DNA of 64,000 nucleotides from an uncultured Gammaproteobacteria bacterium (GCA_964522435.1 CAZFUL010000003.1:57542-121541); one strand, 5' to 3'. Positions 2,989 to 36,260 are shown, counted from the first letter of the stretch. The notes: generated by a model not told the origin, from the letters alone. Translations and numbers: made by a program.

Positions 2989-4026
2989 ATGCGATCTGCG
3001 GTATCTTATTTTTTATTTTTTGCTCTATTAAGCAATTTTTTTCTTCCTCAGCTGGTTCGCGCTAATATGACAGGCGGGGGGTTTGCTATTTATGCGGATT
3101 CGTTTTCTATTGTGAGTGATGAATATACAACTGGGGGTAACTTTGGATTATTTGGAACGGCGGGAGAATTTGGTGCGGGCATTATTCAAAGTCCTATTCA
3201 AGGAAGTATTGTTCAGGTAGATGAATATATTGCTCACTCGAATTTAACCCATGAAATAACTATAGGTGATGGAGTTGTTACAACTACCTTTGCTCTTCGC
3301 AATGGTGCAGGATTATTAAATGGCCAACTATTAGATGGTGTCGGGCCGGAGATTGTTATTGATTGGGGTGGAGCAGCATCAACGAATCAAGGACTATTGT
3401 CTGATAGAATTGCTCAGGCAATTAATGCCGAAACGCATAATCTTGCAATATATGCGCAAAGTGATGGGGTAGACAGTGTTTTTCTTACCAACATTCGAAC
3501 AGAGGGGGCTCAAGCCGTTGCTATTGTAGAAAACATTACCGAAGATGCCATGACTTTTTCAGGCATGTCTCAAAATGGGACACGTTCCTTACGTGGTGGG
3601 TTTCAGGCTATGGAATTAGGCGCAGTTTCTCTTACCTTTAATACCACTACGGTTAATTTATCAGATTTAACGCTTCTAAGTGTTGCGAGTTCGTCTATCA
3701 CTGCAACCGTTACGTCAGATGGGGGGTATGTATTAAGCGCTCAAGAAGATGGGAATTTACGTACGGGTATTCATGATATCGATGATGTTATTGGGGGCGC
3801 CGTTGTTGCAGGAACAGAAGGTTATGGGATACGCACGAGTGGTGATGATGGCCAACAAAATGGCGCCGATGTTGCGTTAACGGGGATTGATCTTACGATT
3901 GCGAGTAATATAGGATCTGTCGTTGGAGAAGATACGATCATTGATTTTCGAGCAGCGATCGATCAAGACAGTATTGGCGGAGACTACAGTCATATTGTTA
4001 CCTTTACTATTACTTCATCATTATGA
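2989..4026 (+). CDS. Secreted hypothetical protein (signal peptide; Gly/Thr/Ser-rich beta-type sequence)
   Basis: 345 aa; N-terminal hydrophobic signal MRSAVSYFLFFALLSNFFLPQLVRA; first gene of a 4-gene plus-strand envelope cluster; stop overlaps next start (ATGA). Confidence 0.55.
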   Translation: MRSAVSYFLFFALLSNFFLPQLVRANMTGGGFAIYADSFSIVSDEYTTGGNFGLFGTAGEFGAGIIQSPIQGSIVQVDEYIAHSNLTHEITIGDGVVTTTFALRNGAGLLNGQLLDGVGPEIVIDWGGAASTNQGLLSDRIAQAINAETHNLAIYAQSDGVDSVFLTNIRTEGAQAVAIVENITEDAMTFSGMSQNGTRSLRGGFQAMELGAVSLTFNTTTVNLSDLTLLSVASSSITATVTSDGGYVLSAQEDGNLRTGIHDIDDVIGGAVVAGTEGYGIRTSGDDGQQNGADVALTGIDLTIASNIGSVVGEDTIIDFRAAIDQDSIGGDYSHIVTFTITSSL

Positions 4027-4883: not shown

Positions 4884-7442
4884 ATGACTATTCGGAATCA
4901 ACTTGTATTTCTTTATGGCTGCATGACGGCCTGCTTTTTTTTGAGTAGTATTTTATGGTGGGTGAGTGTTGTTCGAGCACAAGATATTACGATAGATGTA
5001 ACGGTTCCCGCCATTTGTGGTAATGGCGTTCAAGAAGGAGCAGAAGAGTGTGATGAGGCTGATTTAAATGATCAAACTTGTGCTAATGAGGGATTCGCTG
5101 GTGGTGGCAATTTAGCCTGTCAGGTAGATTGTACCTTTGACACCAATGATTGTCGTGTTGGTGGTGGGGGTGGGGGCGGCGGAGGTGGTCCACAACTACC
5201 AGATCCTGAGCCGCAACCAGAACCCGAACCTCCGGTCCTACCTAATCCTGTATGTGGAGATGGTATAAAAGAAGGGGCAGAAGGTTGTGATGACGGAAAT
5301 CTTTTAGATACAGATTTTTGTAATTCCCAGTGCCAACCACGAGTCATTGTTTGTGGAAATGCATTAGTAGAAGTAGATGAACAATGTGACGATGGAAATG
5401 TGCAAAATGCAGATGGCTGTAGTAATCAATGTCGTGTTGAAGCACCGCTTGCTATTTGTGGTAATGGACAAATAGAGGCCGCAGAACAATGTGATGATGG
5501 GAATCTGCAAAATGCGGATGGCTGTAGTAATCAATGTACCATCGAGCTCCCGGCACCGATCTGTGGTAATCGTCAGATAGAACAAGGAGAACAATGTGAT
5601 GATGGAAATGCGCAAAACGCGGATGGGTGTAGTGATCAATGCCGGGTTGAAATTCCTGTTATTCCTCCTCAGGTGATTCCTCCTATCATTAACCCCCCAG
5701 TTGATCCTATTGCTGGTGGAGAAAATGGAGATGGCGGCGGGGGAGCGGATAGAGAACGAATAACTCTGGGACAAGTAGTATTTTGGATCGCAAATGGAGC
5801 TTTTGTGGTAACGCCCGATGAGCAACAACAGTTGCGAACAGTACAGGGGGATGCTCTTATTATTGGAATCCATGAGCATAATATTCCTCAAGCCGATGTT
5901 GCGCAAATTATCATTCGTGTGGGAGAAAAACAATTCGCGTTTACCTATTCTGCAACCGATGGTAGGTATTATGTCACTGTTCCTGTATCATCCGGTGTTG
6001 CCAATGCTACCGTAAGCATTACGTACAAAGAAGGAATGGAAGATCGTATCTCGTTTCGTATTCTTGGGGTACCGCTTGGCCGCATAATAGATGAAGAAAA
6101 AAATCCACTCTCTCAAGTGCGGGTTTCTCTTATCAATAATGAAACGCAACAGCTAGTAAATGTTGCCGTGGTTGGAGGGACAAATCCCTCTGTAACCGTT
6201 GCAGATGGGCAATATTATTTTCTTGTGCCTAATGGTCGCTATAGCTTGCGCATAGAAAAAGAAGGATTTCATATACGCAATACCCTCGCTTTTGTTGTGA
6301 ATGATCACATCATTAATCAAGAATATGTGTTAATAAAAAAACAGGAAACGATTTTAGAGGCTTTGGCAGGACTTGATGAGAATGCCCCTATTACTGAACG
6401 AGCAACCGTATTATCGCAAGCAATCGTAAATAATGTTCAAGAACAAAGCGCGTTAATTACTCAACAAATAACAGAACGTCTTGCCCTTGTTAATGACGTT
6501 GCGGATGATCCGCAAGTAGAAGAAACAGTAGAAATATTTGTAGCCCCGAGTGTTGTTGGGGTATCTGCGGCGATTATTGTTCCTTCCCTATGGTCGAGTA
6601 TTTTTCCCTTGTTGCGCTATATATTTTTACAACCACTTTTGTTATTGGGAAAACGTACCCGTCGAGAATGGGGTATTGTATACAACAGTTTAACAAAACT
6701 TCCTTTGGATTTGGCGGTTGTTCGTCTTATTGATGCCGCCACAGGTAAAGTAAAACAATCTCGCGTAACAGACACGCATGGACGATATTTATTTATTACT
6801 GAACCGGGGGAATATACGGTTGAAGTAGCAAAAGCAGGATTTACCTTTCCTTCTCAAATTATTCGTCATGTGCGCAATGATGGAAAATTTGTAGACGTAT
6901 ATCATGGAGAAACAATTCGGGTAGCATCTGATAATGTTACTATTACTCCCAATGTTCCACTTGATCCTGCCGGAGAAGTAAAAACACCCAAGAGAGTTGT
7001 TTGGGAGACACGATTGCGTATCCTGCAACAGACTATCTCGGTTTTTGGTATTCTCTTGGCGCTTATTTCTGTATATATTAGCCCAACGGTCTTTACGATT
7101 GGTTTTTTGATACTCCATATGGCGATGTATATTGGTTTCCGTGCATGGATTCAACCCAAACAGCCCAAAGGCTGGGGTATTGTATATAATGAAATCAATA
7201 AAGAACCAGTTTCTGGTGCGGTGGTACGACTCTTTACAAAAGAATATAATAAATTGGTCGCAACGCAAATAACGGATCGCAAAGGACGCTACGCGTTTTT
7301 AGTTGGTCCAAGTACGTATTATGTCACGTCACAAAAAACTGGATATGACAGAGTACAAACAGGAGAAATTGCTATCGACACCAACGAAGAACAATCGTTT
7401 TTAAAAGAAGATGTTCCTATGTCGCAGCATCCTAAGGAATAA
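4884..7442 (+). CDS. Large membrane/surface protein with five cysteine-rich repeats (CGNGxxExxExCDDGNxxNxDGCSxxC), Gly and Pro-Glu low-complexity linkers, three carboxypeptidase-regulatory-like domains and internal TM helices
   Basis: 852 aa; N-terminal TM; repeats at aa ~45-260 (Myxococcus-type cysteine-rich repeat, by memory); G11 run then PEPQPEPEPP; three GRY(x)F...G(x)Y beta-sandwich motifs each preceded by a hydrophobic helix. Confidence 0.7.
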   Translation: MTIRNQLVFLYGCMTACFFLSSILWWVSVVRAQDITIDVTVPAICGNGVQEGAEECDEADLNDQTCANEGFAGGGNLACQVDCTFDTNDCRVGGGGGGGGGGPQLPDPEPQPEPEPPVLPNPVCGDGIKEGAEGCDDGNLLDTDFCNSQCQPRVIVCGNALVEVDEQCDDGNVQNADGCSNQCRVEAPLAICGNGQIEAAEQCDDGNLQNADGCSNQCTIELPAPICGNRQIEQGEQCDDGNAQNADGCSDQCRVEIPVIPPQVIPPIINPPVDPIAGGENGDGGGGADRERITLGQVVFWIANGAFVVTPDEQQQLRTVQGDALIIGIHEHNIPQADVAQIIIRVGEKQFAFTYSATDGRYYVTVPVSSGVANATVSITYKEGMEDRISFRILGVPLGRIIDEEKNPLSQVRVSLINNETQQLVNVAVVGGTNPSVTVADGQYYFLVPNGRYSLRIEKEGFHIRNTLAFVVNDHIINQEYVLIKKQETILEALAGLDENAPITERATVLSQAIVNNVQEQSALITQQITERLALVNDVADDPQVEETVEIFVAPSVVGVSAAIIVPSLWSSIFPLLRYIFLQPLLLLGKRTRREWGIVYNSLTKLPLDLAVVRLIDAATGKVKQSRVTDTHGRYLFITEPGEYTVEVAKAGFTFPSQIIRHVRNDGKFVDVYHGETIRVASDNVTITPNVPLDPAGEVKTPKRVVWETRLRILQQTISVFGILLALISVYISPTVFTIGFLILHMAMYIGFRAWIQPKQPKGWGIVYNEINKEPVSGAVVRLFTKEYNKLVATQITDRKGRYAFLVGPSTYYVTSQKTGYDRVQTGEIAIDTNEEQSFLKEDVPMSQHPKE
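5352..5666 (+). repeat. Three tandem 105-bp direct repeats (each encoding one Cys-rich module) inside CDS 4884..7442; two degenerate copies upstream (~5010-5100, ~5252-5340)
   Basis: Repeat units start at 5352, 5457, 5562 (tgtggWaat...gatggNtgtagtaatcaatg), about 85-90% identity, in frame. Confidence 0.8.
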
Positions 7443-7567: not shown

Positions 7568-10500
7568 ATGCGTTATCGTATTTTTATTGTGGGTATATTA
7601 GTACTTATTGGCGTGTTAGGCATTTTTTATAATAGTTATACACAAGGTTCTGCAATTATTATTTCCGAAATTGGCGCCAGCGAAGCAAGTGGACTTGAGT
7701 GGATAGAACTCTACAATAGGAGTAATGAGGCAATCGATGTGACTGATTGGATTTTTTTTGAAGCAGAGACAAATCATACCCTAACCCTGGTACAGGGAAC
7801 GAGCACGATTCAGGCGAAAGAATTTTTTGTTGTTGCACAAGATAGCACCCAGTTGCTTGAACGAGATGCATTATCCGGGATTACAGTATTTGATAGTGCC
7901 TGGGGGAGCTTAAACGAAAAAGGAGAATCTCTTGCAATAAAAGATCAAATCGGAAATATTGTTGAGCAATTTGTATATATCGCAAGTAGCAATTTTTCCT
8001 TAGAAAAAATAGATCTTGATGCATTTATCTATTCAGCAGAAAATTGGAAGGAACATCCCACTGGGCATTCTTTAGGAAAAGAAAATTATTGGAGTAGTGT
8101 ACCAACAGAAGATTTGCCGCCTGAAAACGAGGGAGAACCAGATGTTCAAGAACATGGGTTTATCCCTATTGTGATAAACGAAGTGGTATCAGATCCGGAG
8201 AGCGGTGGTGAATGGATAGAGTTACTGTCACTTGCTACGACAAGCGTGCAAGTAGCAAACTGGGAGATCTATGATAGTAGTGGAAAGATAGCTACCGTAT
8301 CAAGCACTCTTGAACCAGGATCTTTTTTTGTGGTGGAGCTTGCACGTTCTGTACTAAATAATACTGGTGACACGGTGATATTGCGGAATCATACTGGCAT
8401 AGAGGTGGAGCGTATCGTCTATGGGGTTGCGGATGGTGCCGTTGTTTCTGCGCCCCAAAAAGGCCAAAGTATTGCAAGAACGATGCCGGCTAGTGGCGAG
8501 TTTGTGATCACAACAACTATTACGAAAGGAGAAAAAAATAGTATCGTTTTTCCTGTACCTGAAGAAGGTTCTTCTCCACAAGAACCACCAGCTTCCCCGA
8601 GTAGCACACCAACCCCCACGGGTGTTATTGGTGATATTGTTATTAATGAATTGGTCTCTGATCCTGCTGATGACTCCGAAGAATTTATTGAATTATATAA
8701 TAGTACTCAGGCCACCGTGAGTATTGATGGCTGGTATATAGAAGATGGAAGTGAAGGTAAAACAGTATTGCAGGGGAATATTCCTGGGCAAGGATTTTTT
8801 GTCGTAGAAAAACCAAAAGGAAGTTTAAATAATGCCGGAGATTTAGTGCTGTTGTTTGATGCGTATCGAGATCAAATGGATAGTGTGGCGTATGGGAGTT
8901 GGGACGATGGAAATAAAGCAGATAATGCTCCGGTGGCAAAAGATCCACAATCCTTGTCGCGCAAATCCGATGGCAGTGACACGGATTATGACTATCATGA
9001 TTTTGTCATAACTGATGTGGTAACACCAGGAGAATCAAATCGTATTCATGAGAGCGGTATGCTTGGGCAAGGAATATATACAAAAGATCTTCGTATTTCA
9101 GAACTCTTTCCCAATCCCAAAGGAAGTGATACGGAACAGGAATTTATTGAACTGTTTAATTACGGAGAGATTCCTATTGCCTTACAAGGCTGGCAGATGG
9201 GGGATAACTCTAAAAAAATTTTTCGTTTTACAGACAACCACGAAATTCATCCCTTTTCATATCTCCTGTTGTATCGTTCTGAAACAGGCATTTCTTTGAA
9301 CAATTCTGGTACAGAAGAAGTACATGTATTTGCACCCAATGGAGAAATAATAGATTCGTTGCAATATAGCGGATCAGTAAAAGAGGAGAGTAGCTTTGCT
9401 CGATTTGGGGATACGAGAACTGACTGGACGACTCTTGCGACGCCAGGAAAAGAAAATGTGTTACAAGGACAAGCCGCGGCACCACAGATTGTTTTTCAAT
9501 CAATACCAGATGCCTTTGTCAATGAACCGATTTCTTTTGATGCGTCAGATACTATTGATGAGGATAGTGATAGCTTGTCTTTTTTTTGGGATCTGGGAGA
9601 CACGACAACCAGTAGTAACGAATCATTTATCCACCGCTATACCCAACCCGGAATATATACGATTCAATTAACGGTTCAAGACAGTGAAGCAAATAGTTCA
9701 ACGATGCAACGCATGATACGTATCAGTGATGTTATTGGGGCGACCGAACAGTTTGCTACGTCGTCGTATCATGCCCTGCGGATTACTGAGTTAGTCCCTA
9801 ATCCAGAAGGGACAGACGATACAGAGTTTATTGAATTATTTAATGCAGGATTTGTGGATATAGATATTTCAGATTTGTTTCTTGATGATGAAGATGGTGG
9901 TTCGAAGCCCTATCGCTTTCCTTCTGGTACGAGTATTGCGGCTCAATCATATCGGGTGTTTTCTCGTACTGAGACAAAATTAGCATTAAATAATACCGCA
10001 GACCATGTGCGTTTGTTGAGTAAAGAAAAAGATATATTATTAGATGTGGCATATGATGGAAGTGTGGAAGGGGCTGCATATGTCCTAGATGATGTCGGAA
10101 ATTGGGTATGGTCACAGCGTATTACTCCAGGAGAAATATCGTATGTTGAGGAATTGGATATCATATTATCTTCTACGAAAAAAAATAATAAAGAAAAAAT
10201 AGTTCTGTCCACCACGATTGCGGGGGCAAAACAACAAGATGTTGGAGATATGGTAGATGTGTATGGCGTTGTTGCCGTTGAACCAGGTGTCTTTGGGACG
10301 CAATATTTTTATATGGTTGATGAAGAACAACAAGCCATACAGGTGTATATGTATAAAAAAGATTTTCCCTCACTTTCTATTGGAGATGGCATGTATGTGC
10401 GAGGTGAATTGGCAATGACAAAAGGAGAGTGGAGAATAAAAACAAGTGACAAAGAAGATATTCGTGCACATGATCACCCGAATCTTGAGGATATTATGAC

Positions 10501-10948
10501 AGAAGACATTGCGCATATTAAAGAGGCGCAGATACAATTTGTTCGTATTGCTGGAGAGGTTACAGAAGCAAAGTCTTCGTATTTGTATGTGGATGATGGG
10601 ACGGATGAAATAAAAATATATCTAAAAAAAGGAGCAAACGTTCCTAAAAAGTTTGTCTCTGTGGGAGACCTTGTTGACGTTACGGGTATATTGATTACGA
10701 GTGGAGAAGAATTACAACTCTTACCCAGATCGTCAAAAGATATAATAAAAACCGGCGTTGTAGAAGAATCAATTATTGATAAAGGAATAGGAGATTCAGT
10801 GAACGAGGGAAGTGTTGCACAAACATATTTAACAGCAACTGCTGGAGGTATTAGTTCATTGCTACTCGGCATGTTAGCTAAAGTGCACGGCGCTACTATT
10901 TGGAGGAGAACAACGTACGTGCTAGAAAAAATTATTCGGCGTGCATAA
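7568..10948 (+). CDS. Giant membrane-anchored surface protein: N-terminal TM, five lamin-tail domains (LTD), one PKD domain, two C-terminal OB-fold-like domains, C-terminal hydrophobic segment
   Basis: 1126 aa; strong SD (aggagg) 8 nt upstream; LTD signatures IIISEIGASE...EWIELYN, IVINEVVSDPESGGEWIEL, IVINELVSDPADDSEEFIELYN, LRISELFPNPKGSDTEQEFIELFN, LRITELVPNPEGTDDTEFIELFN; PKD-like FFWDLGDTTTS...YTQPGIYTIQLTVQD; OB-like VDVYGVVAVEPG...QYFYMVDE and IAGEVTEAK...LYVDDGTDEIKIY; no nuclease catalytic motifs recognized. Confidence 0.75.
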   Translation: MRYRIFIVGILVLIGVLGIFYNSYTQGSAIIISEIGASEASGLEWIELYNRSNEAIDVTDWIFFEAETNHTLTLVQGTSTIQAKEFFVVAQDSTQLLERDALSGITVFDSAWGSLNEKGESLAIKDQIGNIVEQFVYIASSNFSLEKIDLDAFIYSAENWKEHPTGHSLGKENYWSSVPTEDLPPENEGEPDVQEHGFIPIVINEVVSDPESGGEWIELLSLATTSVQVANWEIYDSSGKIATVSSTLEPGSFFVVELARSVLNNTGDTVILRNHTGIEVERIVYGVADGAVVSAPQKGQSIARTMPASGEFVITTTITKGEKNSIVFPVPEEGSSPQEPPASPSSTPTPTGVIGDIVINELVSDPADDSEEFIELYNSTQATVSIDGWYIEDGSEGKTVLQGNIPGQGFFVVEKPKGSLNNAGDLVLLFDAYRDQMDSVAYGSWDDGNKADNAPVAKDPQSLSRKSDGSDTDYDYHDFVITDVVTPGESNRIHESGMLGQGIYTKDLRISELFPNPKGSDTEQEFIELFNYGEIPIALQGWQMGDNSKKIFRFTDNHEIHPFSYLLLYRSETGISLNNSGTEEVHVFAPNGEIIDSLQYSGSVKEESSFARFGDTRTDWTTLATPGKENVLQGQAAAPQIVFQSIPDAFVNEPISFDASDTIDEDSDSLSFFWDLGDTTTSSNESFIHRYTQPGIYTIQLTVQDSEANSSTMQRMIRISDVIGATEQFATSSYHALRITELVPNPEGTDDTEFIELFNAGFVDIDISDLFLDDEDGGSKPYRFPSGTSIAAQSYRVFSRTETKLALNNTADHVRLLSKEKDILLDVAYDGSVEGAAYVLDDVGNWVWSQRITPGEISYVEELDIILSSTKKNNKEKIVLSTTIAGAKQQDVGDMVDVYGVVAVEPGVFGTQYFYMVDEEQQAIQVYMYKKDFPSLSIGDGMYVRGELAMTKGEWRIKTSDKEDIRAHDHPNLEDIMTEDIAHIKEAQIQFVRIAGEVTEAKSSYLYVDDGTDEIKIYLKKGANVPKKFVSVGDLVDVTGILITSGEELQLLPRSSKDIIKTGVVEESIIDKGIGDSVNEGSVAQTYLTATAGGISSLLLGMLAKVHGATIWRRTTYVLEKIIRRA

Positions 10949-31294: not shown

Positions 31295-33022
31295 ATGGGA
31301 ACAGGATTTAGTTCGATTGAAGACTTACTTGGTGCATCAAAAAAAACAGGGTCATCAGGAAAAGCACCAGCATATGGTAGTCCAGAAGATCTGTTTCACA
31401 AAAAGATGAAGCAAGTCTCTCAAAAAGAAAAAGAAGTTGAGGTGCAACGATCGGCTGCCCTTGTTTCTGTTCCGTATATTTCGTTAGAACATTTTCCGGT
31501 GAGCCATGAAGCCTTGCGTCAAATTCCAGAACAAGAGGCCCGAGACAAACAAGTGGTCTGTTTTTTTGCTACACCAGAAGAGTTTCGTTTAGGAGCCGTA
31601 TCTCCGACAGATGGGCAGGCAGATGAGCTCTTGCATGTTCTTGAAGAAAAAAATAACTCGCACGGAAAAATATATTCTATTTCTGAAGCCAGTTTGCAGC
31701 ATGTGTTGTTGTTATATAAAACGCTTCCTGTGGTACATGCAATTAGTAAAGACGTTTCGATTCAAGCATCCGAATTAGAGCAAGTACAAGCCTCGGTGAA
31801 TGATTTTTTGCAGTTTCAAGAACAATTACGCAAGAGTACGACAACAGATTTGCTCACCTTTATTATGGGGGCTGCGTTAAAGCTAGAAGCCTCTGATGTG
31901 CATATTGAAGCAGAAGAACAGCGGATTGTGTTGCGTTTTCGTATTGATGGTATTTTGCACGATGCGGCAAGTATTACTTCTGAGCAGTATAAAAAACTGG
32001 TTTCTCGGTTAAAATTACTGTCCTCATTAAAAATCAATATCACGGATAAACCGCAAGATGGACGCTTTACCGTAAAAACAAGTACGGGAGATATTGATAT
32101 TCGTGTTTCTCTTATTCCAACTATTTATGGAGAGAGTATTGTTATGCGTTTGTTGGTACAACGCCAAGAAGCCTATTCTTTTGAAGAGTTGGGTTTACGT
32201 GGGCAACAGCTTGACCGGTTAAAACGAGAGATGGATCGTCCCAATGGTATGATTATTACGACTGGGCCAACAGGGTCGGGGAAGACAACAACGTTATATG
32301 CCATGATGCATCAGTTAAATAAACCAGATGTTAAAATTATTACGCTCGAAGATCCAGTAGAATATAAAATGCCGGGCATTAACCAAAGTCAAATTGATAG
32401 GAGCAGTGATTATACATTTGCAAAAGGATTACGTTCATTATTACGCCAAGATCCTGATATTGCCATGGTGGGAGAAATTCGTGACTTAGAAACAGCTGAC
32501 ATTGCCATTCAGGCAGCATTAACAGGTCATTTAATGCTTTCTACGGTGCATACGAATGACGCTTTTGGGGCCATTGCTCGATTTTTATCTATGGGAGTAC
32601 AACCCTTTTTATTAGCCCCTGCATTAAACTGTGTGATTGGACAGCGCTTAGTTCGACGCTTGCGTGATGATTTGAAGCAACCAACGACCTTAACGGCAAG
32701 TCAACAAGAACGAGTGACGGCACTTATTGAAGATCTACCAGAACCTCTCCGTGCGGAAGTAAAAAATAGACCGCAAGTATTTTATTCTGTTCCAGAAGAA
32801 AATCCTCAAGGTGAGTTAGGATACCAAGGACGCTTAGGTATTTATGAGGTGTTTGTGGTTGATGATGACATTGAAGCTGCGATTAGTGCGGGAAACGTTG
32901 GAGAAGTCGATATTCGTCGTCTTGCAAAGAAACAAGGTACCATTACCATGGCGCAAGACGGTATATTAAAAGCGCTTGATGGCCTTACCTCTGTTGAAGA
33001 AGTCTTTCGTGTGATAGAATAG
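31295..33022 (+). CDS. pilB: Type IV pilus assembly / type II secretion ATPase (GspE/PilB family)
   Basis: 575 aa; N-terminal GspE_N-like region, Walker A TGPTGSGKTTT, Asp box LEDPVEY, Walker B/His box MVGEIRD...TGHLMLSTVHTN. Confidence 0.85.
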   Translation: MGTGFSSIEDLLGASKKTGSSGKAPAYGSPEDLFHKKMKQVSQKEKEVEVQRSAALVSVPYISLEHFPVSHEALRQIPEQEARDKQVVCFFATPEEFRLGAVSPTDGQADELLHVLEEKNNSHGKIYSISEASLQHVLLLYKTLPVVHAISKDVSIQASELEQVQASVNDFLQFQEQLRKSTTTDLLTFIMGAALKLEASDVHIEAEEQRIVLRFRIDGILHDAASITSEQYKKLVSRLKLLSSLKINITDKPQDGRFTVKTSTGDIDIRVSLIPTIYGESIVMRLLVQRQEAYSFEELGLRGQQLDRLKREMDRPNGMIITTGPTGSGKTTTLYAMMHQLNKPDVKIITLEDPVEYKMPGINQSQIDRSSDYTFAKGLRSLLRQDPDIAMVGEIRDLETADIAIQAALTGHLMLSTVHTNDAFGAIARFLSMGVQPFLLAPALNCVIGQRLVRRLRDDLKQPTTLTASQQERVTALIEDLPEPLRAEVKNRPQVFYSVPEENPQGELGYQGRLGIYEVFVVDDDIEAAISAGNVGEVDIRRLAKKQGTITMAQDGILKALDGLTSVEEVFRVIE

Positions 33023-33050: not shown

Positions 33051-34193
33051 ATGGTGTCTCGTCGTTCACAAACAAGTATTGTTCAGGAACAGCCAGTTCG
33101 TTTTTATAAACTTATTGCCTTAACATTTTTGGTATTAACCATTGCCTTATTAGGTATTGTTGTATTTATGTCTGCGAAGCGAGCAGAAATTACTATTAGT
33201 ACAAAAGTTGCTCCTATTGATATTACTTCTGACATTGTATTTTCTTCTGATCAAACACATGGCGTTGCCTATGAAATGGCAACTACCACAATAACTGAAG
33301 AGCGTCAATTTAAACCAAGTGGAACTAGAGAAGAGTTAGGAATTGCCGAAGGTATGGTGACCTTGCATAATGAAAGTACCCTTGATCAACCCTTGGTTGC
33401 GACAACCCGACTTCAGCAAGGAGATATTGTCTTTCGACTAAAAGAACGAGTTGTTGTTCCTGCGAAAGCGACGGTACAAAACGTTGCTGTGTATGCTGAT
33501 AAAGAGGGGGCTGAGTATCATTTACCGCCCACACGCTTTATTATTCCTGGTTTGCAAGAAGCAAAACAAAAAGAAATATATGCAACGAGCGATGCGCCTA
33601 TGACTGGCGGGATACGAAATATTGGTATTATTTCTTCTGAAGATATGGAGCAGGCGATTGCCAGTATGCGTGCGTATATTGAAAAAAAAGCCGCAGAAAC
33701 ATTTTCACCCGAATCAAGCAGTGGCAAACAAGCGCTTTTTCATGTGCAATCATTAGCCGTGGTACCCTCGCATGAGGTGGGTGAAGAAATTGATGCCTTT
33801 ACCCTTCAAGCAACTGCTGAGGTATTGATTGTGTCTTATGCGAGTGATGCCCTGCAGCAATGGGCGAAACAGGAGCTCACTAAACGTTCTTTAGAACATA
33901 CAGATCTTATACAACCGAGTGATAAAGCCCCTACCGTCACCTTTGTTCATTATGATGCGTCTAAGCAAGAAGCCACCGCACGTGTATTTTATGATGGGAC
34001 GGTAAGTTTATCCGCCGAAAGTAAACAAATAGAAAAGGCATTATTTTTTGGAAAAGATAAAAATGAAGTACGTCGATATTTATTAGGATTGGACCATGTA
34101 CATAGTGTTGACGTGAAATTACATCCTGCTTGGATTCAAACAGTGCCACACATTGCAGATCATGTAACCGTTATTATCCAAGAAGTAGAATAA
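33051..34193 (+). CDS. Hypothetical membrane-anchored protein (single N-terminal TM, large extracytoplasmic domain) downstream of pilB
   Basis: 380 aa; KLIALTFLVLTIALLGIVVFMSA anchor; no family recognized. Confidence 0.4.
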   Translation: MVSRRSQTSIVQEQPVRFYKLIALTFLVLTIALLGIVVFMSAKRAEITISTKVAPIDITSDIVFSSDQTHGVAYEMATTTITEERQFKPSGTREELGIAEGMVTLHNESTLDQPLVATTRLQQGDIVFRLKERVVVPAKATVQNVAVYADKEGAEYHLPPTRFIIPGLQEAKQKEIYATSDAPMTGGIRNIGIISSEDMEQAIASMRAYIEKKAAETFSPESSSGKQALFHVQSLAVVPSHEVGEEIDAFTLQATAEVLIVSYASDALQQWAKQELTKRSLEHTDLIQPSDKAPTVTFVHYDASKQEATARVFYDGTVSLSAESKQIEKALFFGKDKNEVRRYLLGLDHVHSVDVKLHPAWIQTVPHIADHVTVIIQEVE

Positions 34194-34202
34194 AAAATTT
34201 TC

Positions 34203-34480
34203 TTGACAAAAATATATCGCGAGCGTACTATGTAGGTACGCTCTTTTGTTTCGTTTGTATAAGAATCAACCCAGAGTACACCGCTCGTTATAGAGAGGGA
34301 AAAGAGTTGCTGAAACTTTTCCTAACGAGAATTGCTCATGGTACCAGTCTTAAAGAAACCACAATACATAAAAGTAAAATAATTGGGTGGAACCGCCTTT
34401 GTTAACAGTTATTCTCAGGCCCCGATATAGTAGGTAATAAACGTCTTGTTTGTTGCATACTATATCGGGGTTTTTTATAT
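34203..34480 (+). promoter_or_regulatory. T-box riboswitch leader of thrS: promoter TTGACA-N17-TACTAT, Stem I with AGAGA and Thr codons, T-box sequence AAUUGGGUGGAACCGCC, terminator hairpin + U-run
   Basis: Promoter 34203-34231; T-box consensus AATTGGGTGGAACCGCC at 34381-34397; 13-bp terminator stem CCCCGATATAGTA...TACTATATCGGGG (34420-34470) followed by TTTTTT; GAAACU (34312-34317) and AAACC (34356-34360) provide ACU/ACC Thr specifier candidates; 23 nt from U-run to thrS ATG. Confidence 0.7.
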
Positions 34481-34502
34481 ATAATTAATTATTTATCTAT
34501 CT

Positions 34503-36260
34503 ATGAGTATGCATGACAAACAGTATCTTGAACACCTTCGTCATTCTGCTGCGCATTTGCTTGCCGCTGCCATTATGGAATTATGGCCAAACAGCAAAAG
34601 AACGATTGGTCCTTCTATAGAAAATGGGTTTTATTTTGATTTCGATTTTGGTGATATAAAAATTTCTGAAGCAGATTTTCCTGCTATTGAAAAAAAAATG
34701 CATGACTTGCTGCCCAGTTGGAAAGGGTTTGAACGGCATGAACTCTCCGGGGATGACGCAAAAAAAGAATATCCAGACAATGCGTTTAAGCATGAATTAA
34801 TTGATGAATTTACCAAAAATGGAGAACTGGTATCTTTTTATAAATCAGGAAATTATTGGGATTTATGTCGTGGGGGGCATGTGAATCATCCGGATCAAGA
34901 AGTACAATATTTTAAGCTGCTTTCTGTTGCTGGAGCCTACTGGCGTGGAAGTGAAAAAAATCCTATGCTTACCCGCATTTATGGGACAGCATTTCCTTCT
35001 CAACAAGCATTAGATGAACATTTACAGATGCTTGAAGAAGCAAAAAAACGTGATCATAGAAAAATTGGTCAAGAACAAGGATTGTTTTTTATTGATGACA
35101 TGGTAGGAAAAGGGTTGGTGTTATGGCAACCAAACGGCATGATTATTCGTGAACAAGTAGAACAGTTGGCAAAAGAAAAAGAACGGGCTGCGGGCTATAA
35201 ACGGGTCGCAACACCGCATCTCGCCAAAGAAGAGCTTTTTTTAACCTCAGGACATTTGCCTTATTATAAAGAGGGGATGTATCCTCCAATGGTGATGGAT
35301 GATGGCACATATTATTTAAAAGCCATGAATTGTCCGCATCATCATATTATCTATAACCATGAGCCGCATAGCTATCGCCAATTACCGTTGCGATTAGCAG
35401 AATATGGAACCTGTTATCGAAACGAGCTGTCTGGGACCCTTGCTGGGCTATTACGGGTGCGGGGACTGGCCATGAACGATGCGCATATCTATTGTCGAAA
35501 AGATCAAATTGAAGAAGAATTTCGTTCTGTTATGACCTTAACCATGGAGTATTTTGCGATTTTTGGTTTACAAAATTATTGGTTCCGCTTGTCAAAATGG
35601 AGTAAAGATCATACAGACAAATATATTAATGAACCAGAACATTGGGAATATGCAGAAGGAGTATTGCGTACCGTCCTTCAAGATATGAAGGTACCGTTTG
35701 TGGAAGTCGATGATGAAGCAGCGTTCTATGGACCAAAAGTCGATGTACAGTTTAAATCAGCCGTTGGAAGAGAAGAAACCATGTCTACCATTCAATTAGA
35801 TTTTGCTGCAAAAAAACGTTTTGGATTAGTATATACGGATCAAGAAGGCAAAGAAAATAACGAGGTATTTGTGATTCATCGTGCCCCACTATCAACGCAC
35901 GAACGCTTTACCGCCTTTTTGATTGAACATTACGCAGGAGTATGGCCTGTGTGGCTTGCACCGGTTCAAGTAGCTATCTTACCTGTTTCTACAGACAAAC
36001 ATCTTTCTGGCGCACAAGCATTTGCAAAAGAATGTGAGAAAAAAGGATTGCGGGTCTGGGTGGATGATGCTGCTGAAACGGTTGGGAAAAAAATCCGTAA
36101 TGCCTCTAAGAGTAAAATTCCGTATGTGCTTGTGATGGGAGATAAAGAATTATCTGGTGACCTGTTAACTGTTCGTTTTCGAGGGCAAGAGGAACAACGA
36201 GAAATGCTGAAACAACAGTTTATTGACCAGGTTTCTCAAGAAATAGCAGAAAAAAAATAG
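34503..36260 (+). CDS. thrS: Threonyl-tRNA synthetase (lacks N-terminal TGS domain; editing domain present)
   Basis: 585 aa; editing-site HxxxH (HLRHSAAHLL) and Cys (WDLCRGGH); class II core CPHHHIIYNHEPHSYRQLPLRLAEYGTCYRNE; anticodon-binding domain. Confidence 0.9.
   Translation: MSMHDKQYLEHLRHSAAHLLAAAIMELWPNSKRTIGPSIENGFYFDFDFGDIKISEADFPAIEKKMHDLLPSWKGFERHELSGDDAKKEYPDNAFKHELIDEFTKNGELVSFYKSGNYWDLCRGGHVNHPDQEVQYFKLLSVAGAYWRGSEKNPMLTRIYGTAFPSQQALDEHLQMLEEAKKRDHRKIGQEQGLFFIDDMVGKGLVLWQPNGMIIREQVEQLAKEKERAAGYKRVATPHLAKEELFLTSGHLPYYKEGMYPPMVMDDGTYYLKAMNCPHHHIIYNHEPHSYRQLPLRLAEYGTCYRNELSGTLAGLLRVRGLAMNDAHIYCRKDQIEEEFRSVMTLTMEYFAIFGLQNYWFRLSKWSKDHTDKYINEPEHWEYAEGVLRTVLQDMKVPFVEVDDEAAFYGPKVDVQFKSAVGREETMSTIQLDFAAKKRFGLVYTDQEGKENNEVFVIHRAPLSTHERFTAFLIEHYAGVWPVWLAPVQVAILPVSTDKHLSGAQAFAKECEKKGLRVWVDDAAETVGKKIRNASKSKIPYVLVMGDKELSGDLLTVRFRGQEEQREMLKQQFIDQVSQEIAEKK

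Follow-up and report, generated by a model that had tools for sequence, protein, structure and literature searches.

T-box riboswitches are taught as a feature of the Firmicutes and of a few other Gram-positive-type phyla. In their canonical transcriptional form (RF00230), of which the Bacillus subtilis thrS and tyrS leaders are examples, they are placed before aminoacyl-tRNA synthetase genes and combine a Stem I carrying a K-turn, an S-turn and the specifier codon with Stem II, the IIA/B pseudoknot, Stem III and an antiterminator that competes with an intrinsic terminator. The glycine T-boxes of the glyQS type are smaller: they consist of Stem I, a linker and the discriminator, without Stem II or pseudoknot, and act by transcription termination, and they have kept K-turn, S-turn and Stem III as well as a G•U pair at the foot of helix A2. 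Their loss of Stem II has been explained by the all-G/C pairing of GGC with GCC (PMC7583486). In the same work the discriminator is described by the motif 5'-RRRxG, Stem III, AA-3', Stem III is said to be "indispensable" for the binding of the tRNA 3' end, an antiterminator without it showed no appreciable tRNA binding, the G•U pair at the A2 base is regarded as the primary steric sensor of the aminoacyl group, and transcriptional T-boxes are said to need a platform for the tRNA elbow (PMC7583486).

The TBDB paper uses class I and class II models, the latter being searched in Actinobacteria. The actinobacterial ileS elements (class II, translational) have an intermediate Stem I, with the specifier in a side loop beneath a short hairpin, or an ultrashort one, with the specifier in an apical loop of 7-8 nt; helix A2 is often extended. 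They sequester the Shine-Dalgarno sequence and hold the codon-anticodon duplex by means of Stem II and the pseudoknot. A tRNA-related logic also governs thrS in E. coli, where a translational operator that mimics the tRNA-Thr anticodon arm is bound by threonyl-tRNA synthetase (ThrRS).

We analysed a stretch of 64 kb of DNA (hereafter the window) in which the region 34203-34480, upstream of thrS, is with a probability of about 0.85 a T-box transcription attenuator that responds to tRNA-Thr and has a reduced design peculiar to the CPR. Sequence motifs, two mutually exclusive folds, helix covariation, a conserved Thr codon and an association with thrS only are what the data provide. A first-pass annotation had already described a T-box-type leader before thrS, with a Thr specifier and an antiterminator that excludes a terminator, and this core description holds. 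It gave the gap before thrS as 310 nt; between the end of the upstream ORF (34193) and the thrS ATG (34503) we measured 309 nt, and all the features it listed are present in the gap. The features of the locus are the following (related loci are given by L numbers).

34203..34231, + strand: promoter, with -35 box TTGACA (34203-08), 17-nt spacer and -10 box TACTAT (34226-31); 10/12 positions match
34260..34352, + strand: Stem I, long form, in the minimum-free-energy fold; P1-P3 covary in seven relatives
34260-64:34348-52: helix P1, UAAGA:UCUUA
34265-70: specifier loop, 5' side, AUCAAC
34271-73:34339-41: helix P2, CCA:UGG
34274-78:34333-37: helix P3, GAGUA:UGCUC
34279-83 / 34330-32: internal loop between P3 and P4, CACCG / AAU
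34284-90:34323-29: helix P4, CUCGUUA:UAACGAG
34291..34315, + strand: predicted platform for the tRNA elbow, formed by the AG bulge, the 5' strand of P5 and the distal loop
34291-97: AG bulge, UAGAGAG
34298-304:34316-22: helix P5, GGAAAAG:CUUUUCC
34305-15: distal loop, 11 nt, AGUUGCUGAAA
34338: bulged A
34342-47, + strand: specifier loop, 3' side, UACCAG
34353..34382, + strand: A-rich linker, 30 nt, containing the purine string AAAAG (34370-74), U (34375) and AAAA (34376-79)
34383..34425, + strand: antiterminator; the isolated region folds thus by itself (-8.8 kcal/mol)
34383-87:34421-25: helix A1, UUGGG:CCCGA
34388-94: T-box bulge, 7 nt, UGGAACC
34395-98:34417-20: helix A2, GCCU:AGGC, with an 18-nt loop and basal pair G34395-C34420
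34418..34476, + strand: intrinsic terminator (-33.7 kcal/mol), core 34420-32:34458-70 (13 bp)
34434-42:34448-56: inner stem of the terminator, 9 bp
34471-76: U6, ending 26 nt before the thrS ATG
34503..36260, + strand: thrS, threonyl-tRNA synthetase (585 aa; Pfam PF00587, PF03129, PF07973), the regulated gene

With the canonical transcriptional T-box this leader shares its position before an aminoacyl-tRNA synthetase gene, the cognate specifier codon followed by a purine in Stem I, an AG bulge and a distal loop at canonical spacing, the T-box sequence, and a 7-nt UGGNACC bulge between A1 and A2 in a structure that competes with an intrinsic terminator. Unlike the canonical form, it has no recognisable K-turn or S-turn and no Stem II, IIA/B pseudoknot or Stem III, carries a G-C pair at the foot of A2 where G•U is usual, belongs to a CPR/Patescibacteria host, and possesses a highly conserved specifier loop (5' AYCARC, 3' YACCAS).

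No T-box was reported by the Rfam model RF00230 over the whole window at its gathering score (93 bits), and a scan of 401 nt with permissive filters gave 17.1 bits (E 0.1) against that score of 93. The Rfam scan, which the first-pass annotation had put forward as a check, thus formally goes against it, and support comes instead from comparative analysis; the other point on which it had staked its claim, alternative antiterminator and terminator pairing, is borne out, both folds being present and overlapping. Weak as it is, the RF00230 alignment falls on the diagnostic parts: the T-box sequence, the AGAGA bulge and the distal loop, the last two at high posterior probability. It treats as deletions the model's positions for K-turn, lower Stem I, Stem II and Stem III. 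In the comparison set, canonical-looking thrS leaders from outside the CPR scored 78-90 bits, and CPR leaders scored <=34 bits or were unreported. Rfam-based annotation would miss the whole class.

A covariance model (R1) was built from seven related leaders aligned without the window and annotated with P1, P2, P3, A1 and A2. Over both strands of the window it gave a single match, at 34253-34426 (64.6 bits, E 6.7e-13), in which 55 nt at the tip of Stem I were handled as an insertion. Over 167 related loci its matches fell solely upstream of thrS or of a thrS operon. On the relatives the R1 structure was 93.9% paired, against <=52% when the 3' partners were slid, and ten base pairs in the R1 alignment have changes on both sides. 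These results bear on the reading of the element as a coincidental likeness, or as a decayed T-box relic without function beside an ordinary terminator-like hairpin. The Rfam score far under threshold is what such a reading would lead one to expect, as is the promoter scan, which by itself stands at chance level (3 sites found vs 2.9 expected). Against it stand the E value obtained with an independent model, the covarying helices, the conservation of the element in syntenic genomes whose ThrRS are just ~70% identical, and a Thr codon that varies solely to a synonymous codon. The comparative data already contradict this explanation, which is poorly supported and which we consider hardly credible.

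A motif scan together with the covariance model found no T-box outside thrS leaders, either in the window or in any of the loci. Two extra motif matches, in L004 and L053, were discarded: they are homologues of one another, far from thrS, and resemble coding sequence. The large ORFs of the window include no further synthetase gene, which leaves the window without a comparison by which to judge if T-box control is confined to thrS.

The promoter TTGACA-N17-TACTAT named in the first-pass annotation is present at 34203-31, and nearly all related leaders have a TTGACA or TTGACC -35 box at the corresponding place. Transcription would start near 34238. A second promoter-like site (34402-31), which sits within the antiterminator and terminator, was treated as a chance occurrence. 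A G+C-rich hairpin of 9 bp with a T-run behind it (34221-34243) extends over the -10 box of the thrS promoter; this hairpin may be the terminator of the upstream gene, which encodes a protein of 380 aa, and if so terminator and promoter share sequence.

In the Stem I fold the conserved specifier is the codon ACC at 34343-45, which is followed by the purine A34346 in the internal loop. The two candidates for this role in the first-pass annotation were both misplaced: GAAACU exists at 34312-17 and forms part of the distal loop and P5, and GAAACC exists at 34356-61, in a linker that is not conserved among relatives. A third ACC (34280-82), in the internal loop between P3 and P4, was ruled out, being missing in L164 and L167. 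The block AUGGYACCAS around the specifier is invariant across all window-type leaders, and every thrS T-box examined shows a Thr codon in a Stem I loop. This codon is ACC in all the others, canonical leaders (e.g. GAAAACCAC) and CPR leaders with an ultrashort Stem I (ACC and A in the apical loop, e.g. CUACCAA) included, except in L161, L163 and L166, which have ACU followed by A. The base after the codon is A in nearly all thrS T-boxes, and C in a few (L015, L058, L120). A triplet that varies solely to a synonymous codon is as expected of a codon that reads the anticodon of tRNA-Thr.

The three leaders with ACU (L161:9700-9725, L163:9842-9868 and L166:9800-9826) have ultrashort Stem I hairpins in which the codon lies in an 8-nt apical loop, GAUACUAA. 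Their specifier departs from the T-box 'C rule' for the third codon position, and the intrinsic terminator is still present.

The identity of the triplet also bears on the possibility that the region is an operator bound by ThrRS through tRNA mimicry, as at E. coli thrS, or some other protein-dependent attenuator, and not a tRNA-sensing RNA. E. coli thrS is autoregulated through tRNA-like operators (PMC9976931), and in the window the palindrome UGGUACCA includes GGU, the Thr anticodon. Nevertheless, what is conserved in the loops is a codon, ACC or ACU, and not the anticodon-like loops (NGU) of the E. coli operator, and the GGU is GGC in L088 and missing from the ultrashort loops. Moreover, the E. 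coli mechanism is protein-mediated and translational, its loops adjoining the ribosome-binding site, and neither a UGGAACC bulge nor a competition between A1/A2 and a terminator plays any part in it. An operator of this kind is poorly supported and very improbable, and we retain the tRNA-sensing T-box as the reading of the leader.

The upper part of Stem I is close to that of canonical T-boxes. The AGAGA announced by the first-pass annotation is found at 34292-96. From AGAGA to the end of the distal loop there are 19 nt in the window, against 18-19 nt in canonical thrS leaders with the standard compact distal arm, and from the end of the distal loop to the ACC there are 27 nt (26-27 nt across the long arms), against 24-26 nt in canonical thrS T-boxes. 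With spacings so near the canonical ones, the geometry by which Stem I would touch both anticodon and elbow is kept. Two further long arms are found in the syntenic relatives L164 and L167, where P1, P3, P4 and P5 differ in sequence from those of the window and form the same helices; an AG-rich bulge is common to the three, and their distal loops, 11 nt in length, end in UGAAA. They were compared by an explicit, checked layout, a MAFFT alignment having put the helices out of register.

Several canonical modules could not be recognised. By inspection, no tandem G•A flanks P1 in the window or in the relatives, so that no K-turn (GA motif) is recognisable at the base of Stem I and the GA-motif region proposed in the first-pass annotation was not confirmed. 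No S-turn (AGUA/GAA) is found above the specifier, where the loop strands are AUCAAC and UACCAG; an AGUA at 34275-78 was rejected as an S-turn, as it lies within helix P3, whose sequence differs in L164 and L167. In place of Stem II and the IIA/B pseudoknot there are just 17 unstructured A-rich nt (34353-69) between Stem I and the purine string. In this arrangement of Stem I, linker and discriminator, acting through transcription termination, the leader resembles the glyQS T-boxes, although here Stem II is lacking with a codon (ACC; ACU in relatives) that is not composed of G and C only.

Stem III is likewise absent, no hairpin existing between the flanking purines AAAAG-U-AAAA (34370-79). It is also missing from L167 and from more than 12 other relatives, and a hairpin is present in L164, L023, L087 and the canonical leaders; that of L164 stands exactly at the place of Stem III (AAAGUGA-[CUUUUGC...GCAAAAG]-UAAUUC-GGGUGG). 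The basal pair of A2 is G-C in all traceable members of the window's clade, against G•U or A-U in canonical and other CPR leaders.

The conserved T-box sequence claimed in the first-pass annotation, AAUUGGGUGGAACCGCC, occupies 34381-97. The antiterminator which that annotation proposed also exists and is formed by the pairs GCCU:AGGC and UUGGG:CCCGA; the ACC that it supposed to be paired belongs to the 7-nt bulge. In the middle of A2 the window has a C-G pair and relatives have U-A, a change on both sides, and the A2 extension covaries too. Antiterminator and terminator are mutually exclusive, since the 5' arm of the latter is built from the 3' strands of both A1 and A2. The 13-bp terminator stem and U6 were correctly described in the first-pass annotation; the distance to the ATG is 26 nt and not 23, a figure that counts from the end of its interval. 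A corresponding hairpin with a U-run after it is present in all relatives, and no Shine-Dalgarno-like sequence was found in 34477-34502. In the minimum-free-energy fold of the terminated state, at 34378-34414, AAUAAUUG (34378-85) pairs with CAGUUAUU (34407-14), with GGUG:CGCC inside; in this modelled fold the pairing could sequester the T-box sequence and act as an extra anti-antiterminator.

With changes in both of the known components of the steric sieve, aminoacylation may be sensed in a modified or weaker way, and this is a real alternative. The element would then be derived from a T-box and would still bind tRNA-Thr without the canonical discrimination of charged and uncharged forms, maybe sensing total tRNA-Thr or transcription kinetics. 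Such a reading accords with the G-C in place of G•U and the missing Stem III, seen throughout the window's clade, and with the published statements that an antiterminator lacking Stem III shows no appreciable binding of tRNA and that sensing depends mainly on the G•U pair (PMC7583486). On the other hand, the purine string AAAAG-U-AAAA, the UGGAACC bulge and A1/A2 are strictly kept, which argues for continued selection on the capture of the tRNA 3' end. Moreover L164, a close relative with the same G-C pair, retains Stem III, which suggests that the hairpin can be lost without a change of mechanism. We regard altered sensing as unlikely, and continue with the aminoacylation-responsive attenuator.

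For this attenuator we infer tRNA binding and aminoacylation sensing, as well as the transcription start site, from the sequence of the thrS leader, and we propose the following mechanism. Transcription would begin downstream of TTGACA-17-TACTAT, and Stem I (34260-34352) would offer the codon ACC (34343-45) and the A after it, in the 3' strand of its internal loop, to the GGU anticodon of tRNA-Thr, while the AG bulge and the distal loop at its tip would stack on the tRNA elbow. An uncharged tRNA would pair its 3' NCCA with the UGGA of the 7-nt bulge (34388-94) and so stabilise A1 and A2, letting RNA polymerase continue into thrS. With charged tRNA, or with none, the much more stable terminator (34418-34476) would capture the 3' strands of A1 and A2, and transcription would end 26 nt before the ATG. 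The N of UGGN is A in the window, which predicts U73 in tRNA-Thr, and every tabulated thrS T-box reads UGGA. A tRNA-Thr gene was looked for in the window and in the 167 loci, and none was present. The base N73 of tRNA-Thr differs between species and does not count among the conserved threonine identity elements (PMC9976931).

Around one third of the CPR thrS loci have the core GGGUGGAACC 100-800 nt upstream of the gene, and seven of these have in common with the window the block AYCAGCCCA, a hairpin, and then AUGGYACCAC. Among the syntenic relatives Stem I is long, intermediate or ultrashort, and all of them have intrinsic terminators. The window's relatives span the same Stem I forms as the actinobacterial ileS elements, with the specifier placed likewise and A2 often extended, the window itself having a long Stem I unlike the intermediate and ultrashort ileS forms. 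Every CPR leader ends in an intrinsic terminator and a U-run, in contrast to the Shine-Dalgarno sequestration of the actinobacterial elements, and the intermediate CPR leaders have no Stem II with which to hold the codon-anticodon duplex. The close relatives with an intermediate or ultrashort Stem I lack the elbow platform and yet have clear intrinsic terminators; as predicted transcriptional T-boxes, they run counter to the rule that such elements need the platform (PMC7583486).

The surroundings of thrS vary between lineages. In L100 (878-1432) and L029 (2461-2994) a gene for a GNAT acetyltransferase (~180 aa, PF13302) is placed between the T-box terminator and thrS, and the same GNAT N-terminus was seen in L023, L041, L047, L049, L093 and L101; the window has no such gene. 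From this position of the gene a GNAT-thrS operon controlled by a Thr T-box is predicted in many CPR relatives. In nine loci of CPR, of Microgenomates/Woesebacteria type and without T-box (L007, L017, L044, L045, L051, L084, L105, L107 and L113), a tRNA-Asp(GUC)-tRNA-Val(GAC) pair is found directly upstream of thrS, which therefore has a different transcriptional context in those lineages. The order thrS-infC-rpmI-rplT is the usual Firmicute arrangement and is found in L111, a non-CPR relative with a canonical thrS T-box, where a ribosomal protein L20 leader (RF00558, 62.7 bits) follows thrS at 3277-3406.

The product of thrS contains the domains tRNA-synt_2b, HGTP_anticodon and tRNA_SAD, and has no N-terminal TGS domain. 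Its relatives at 60-74% identity all come from CPR/Patescibacteria MAGs (Magasanikbacteria, Uhrbacteria, Komeilibacteria, Woesebacteria and similar); the nearest non-self ThrRS in a large protein collection is 73% identical, and scans of genome and metagenome contigs gave nothing above ~74%. The lineage hint in the first-pass annotation, which from the T-box looked towards Firmicutes, is not borne out: the ThrRS relatives point to CPR/Patescibacteria, and on this comparison the genome of the window is assigned to that group. Three MAGs labelled DPANN or Nanoarchaeota (L052, L054 and L057) carry ThrRS 53-58% identical to that of the window, and no T-box core was found upstream of their thrS. 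The similarity of these proteins suggests gene transfer between CPR and DPANN, or mis-binning.

The 380-aa protein encoded at 33051-34193 is without a Pfam domain. It is conserved in L161-L167, where it is encoded in synteny immediately before the thrS leader, and in the window its gene is preceded by one for a T2SSE/PilB-like ATPase (31295-33022). Very large surface proteins are typical of episymbiotic CPR cells, and two very large predicted surface proteins are encoded in the window, one with five lamin-tail domains and one PKD domain (7568-10948) and another with CarboxypepD_reg and DUF4215 repeats (4884-7442).

In the open-access full text we found no literature linking T-box riboswitches with Patescibacteria, CPR or its named lineages. 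No description of a natural T-box without Stem III was found there either; an earlier description elsewhere is possible. The element shares the T-box core and fails the threshold of the curated family, as well as several features regarded as defining. From these comparisons we consider it an even chance that the CPR harbour an undescribed, miniaturised lineage of Thr T-boxes that would be working termination switches without K-turn, S-turn, Stem II, Stem III and G•U sensor, all of them modules deemed necessary on structural grounds, the platform being missing in close relatives as well. Within one syntenic clade of this putative lineage Stem I would have been rebuilt repeatedly, in long, intermediate and ultrashort forms, the reduced discriminator remaining constant.

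If functional, the CPR leaders define the true minimal T-box and are natural test cases for T-box action without K-turn or Stem III. With ~170-220 nt they offer a compact system for finding the essentials of tRNA recognition and charge sensing. The element adds the CPR, whose gene regulation is almost unknown, to the distribution of T-boxes, and it points to thrS as a regulated node in organisms of minimal metabolism.
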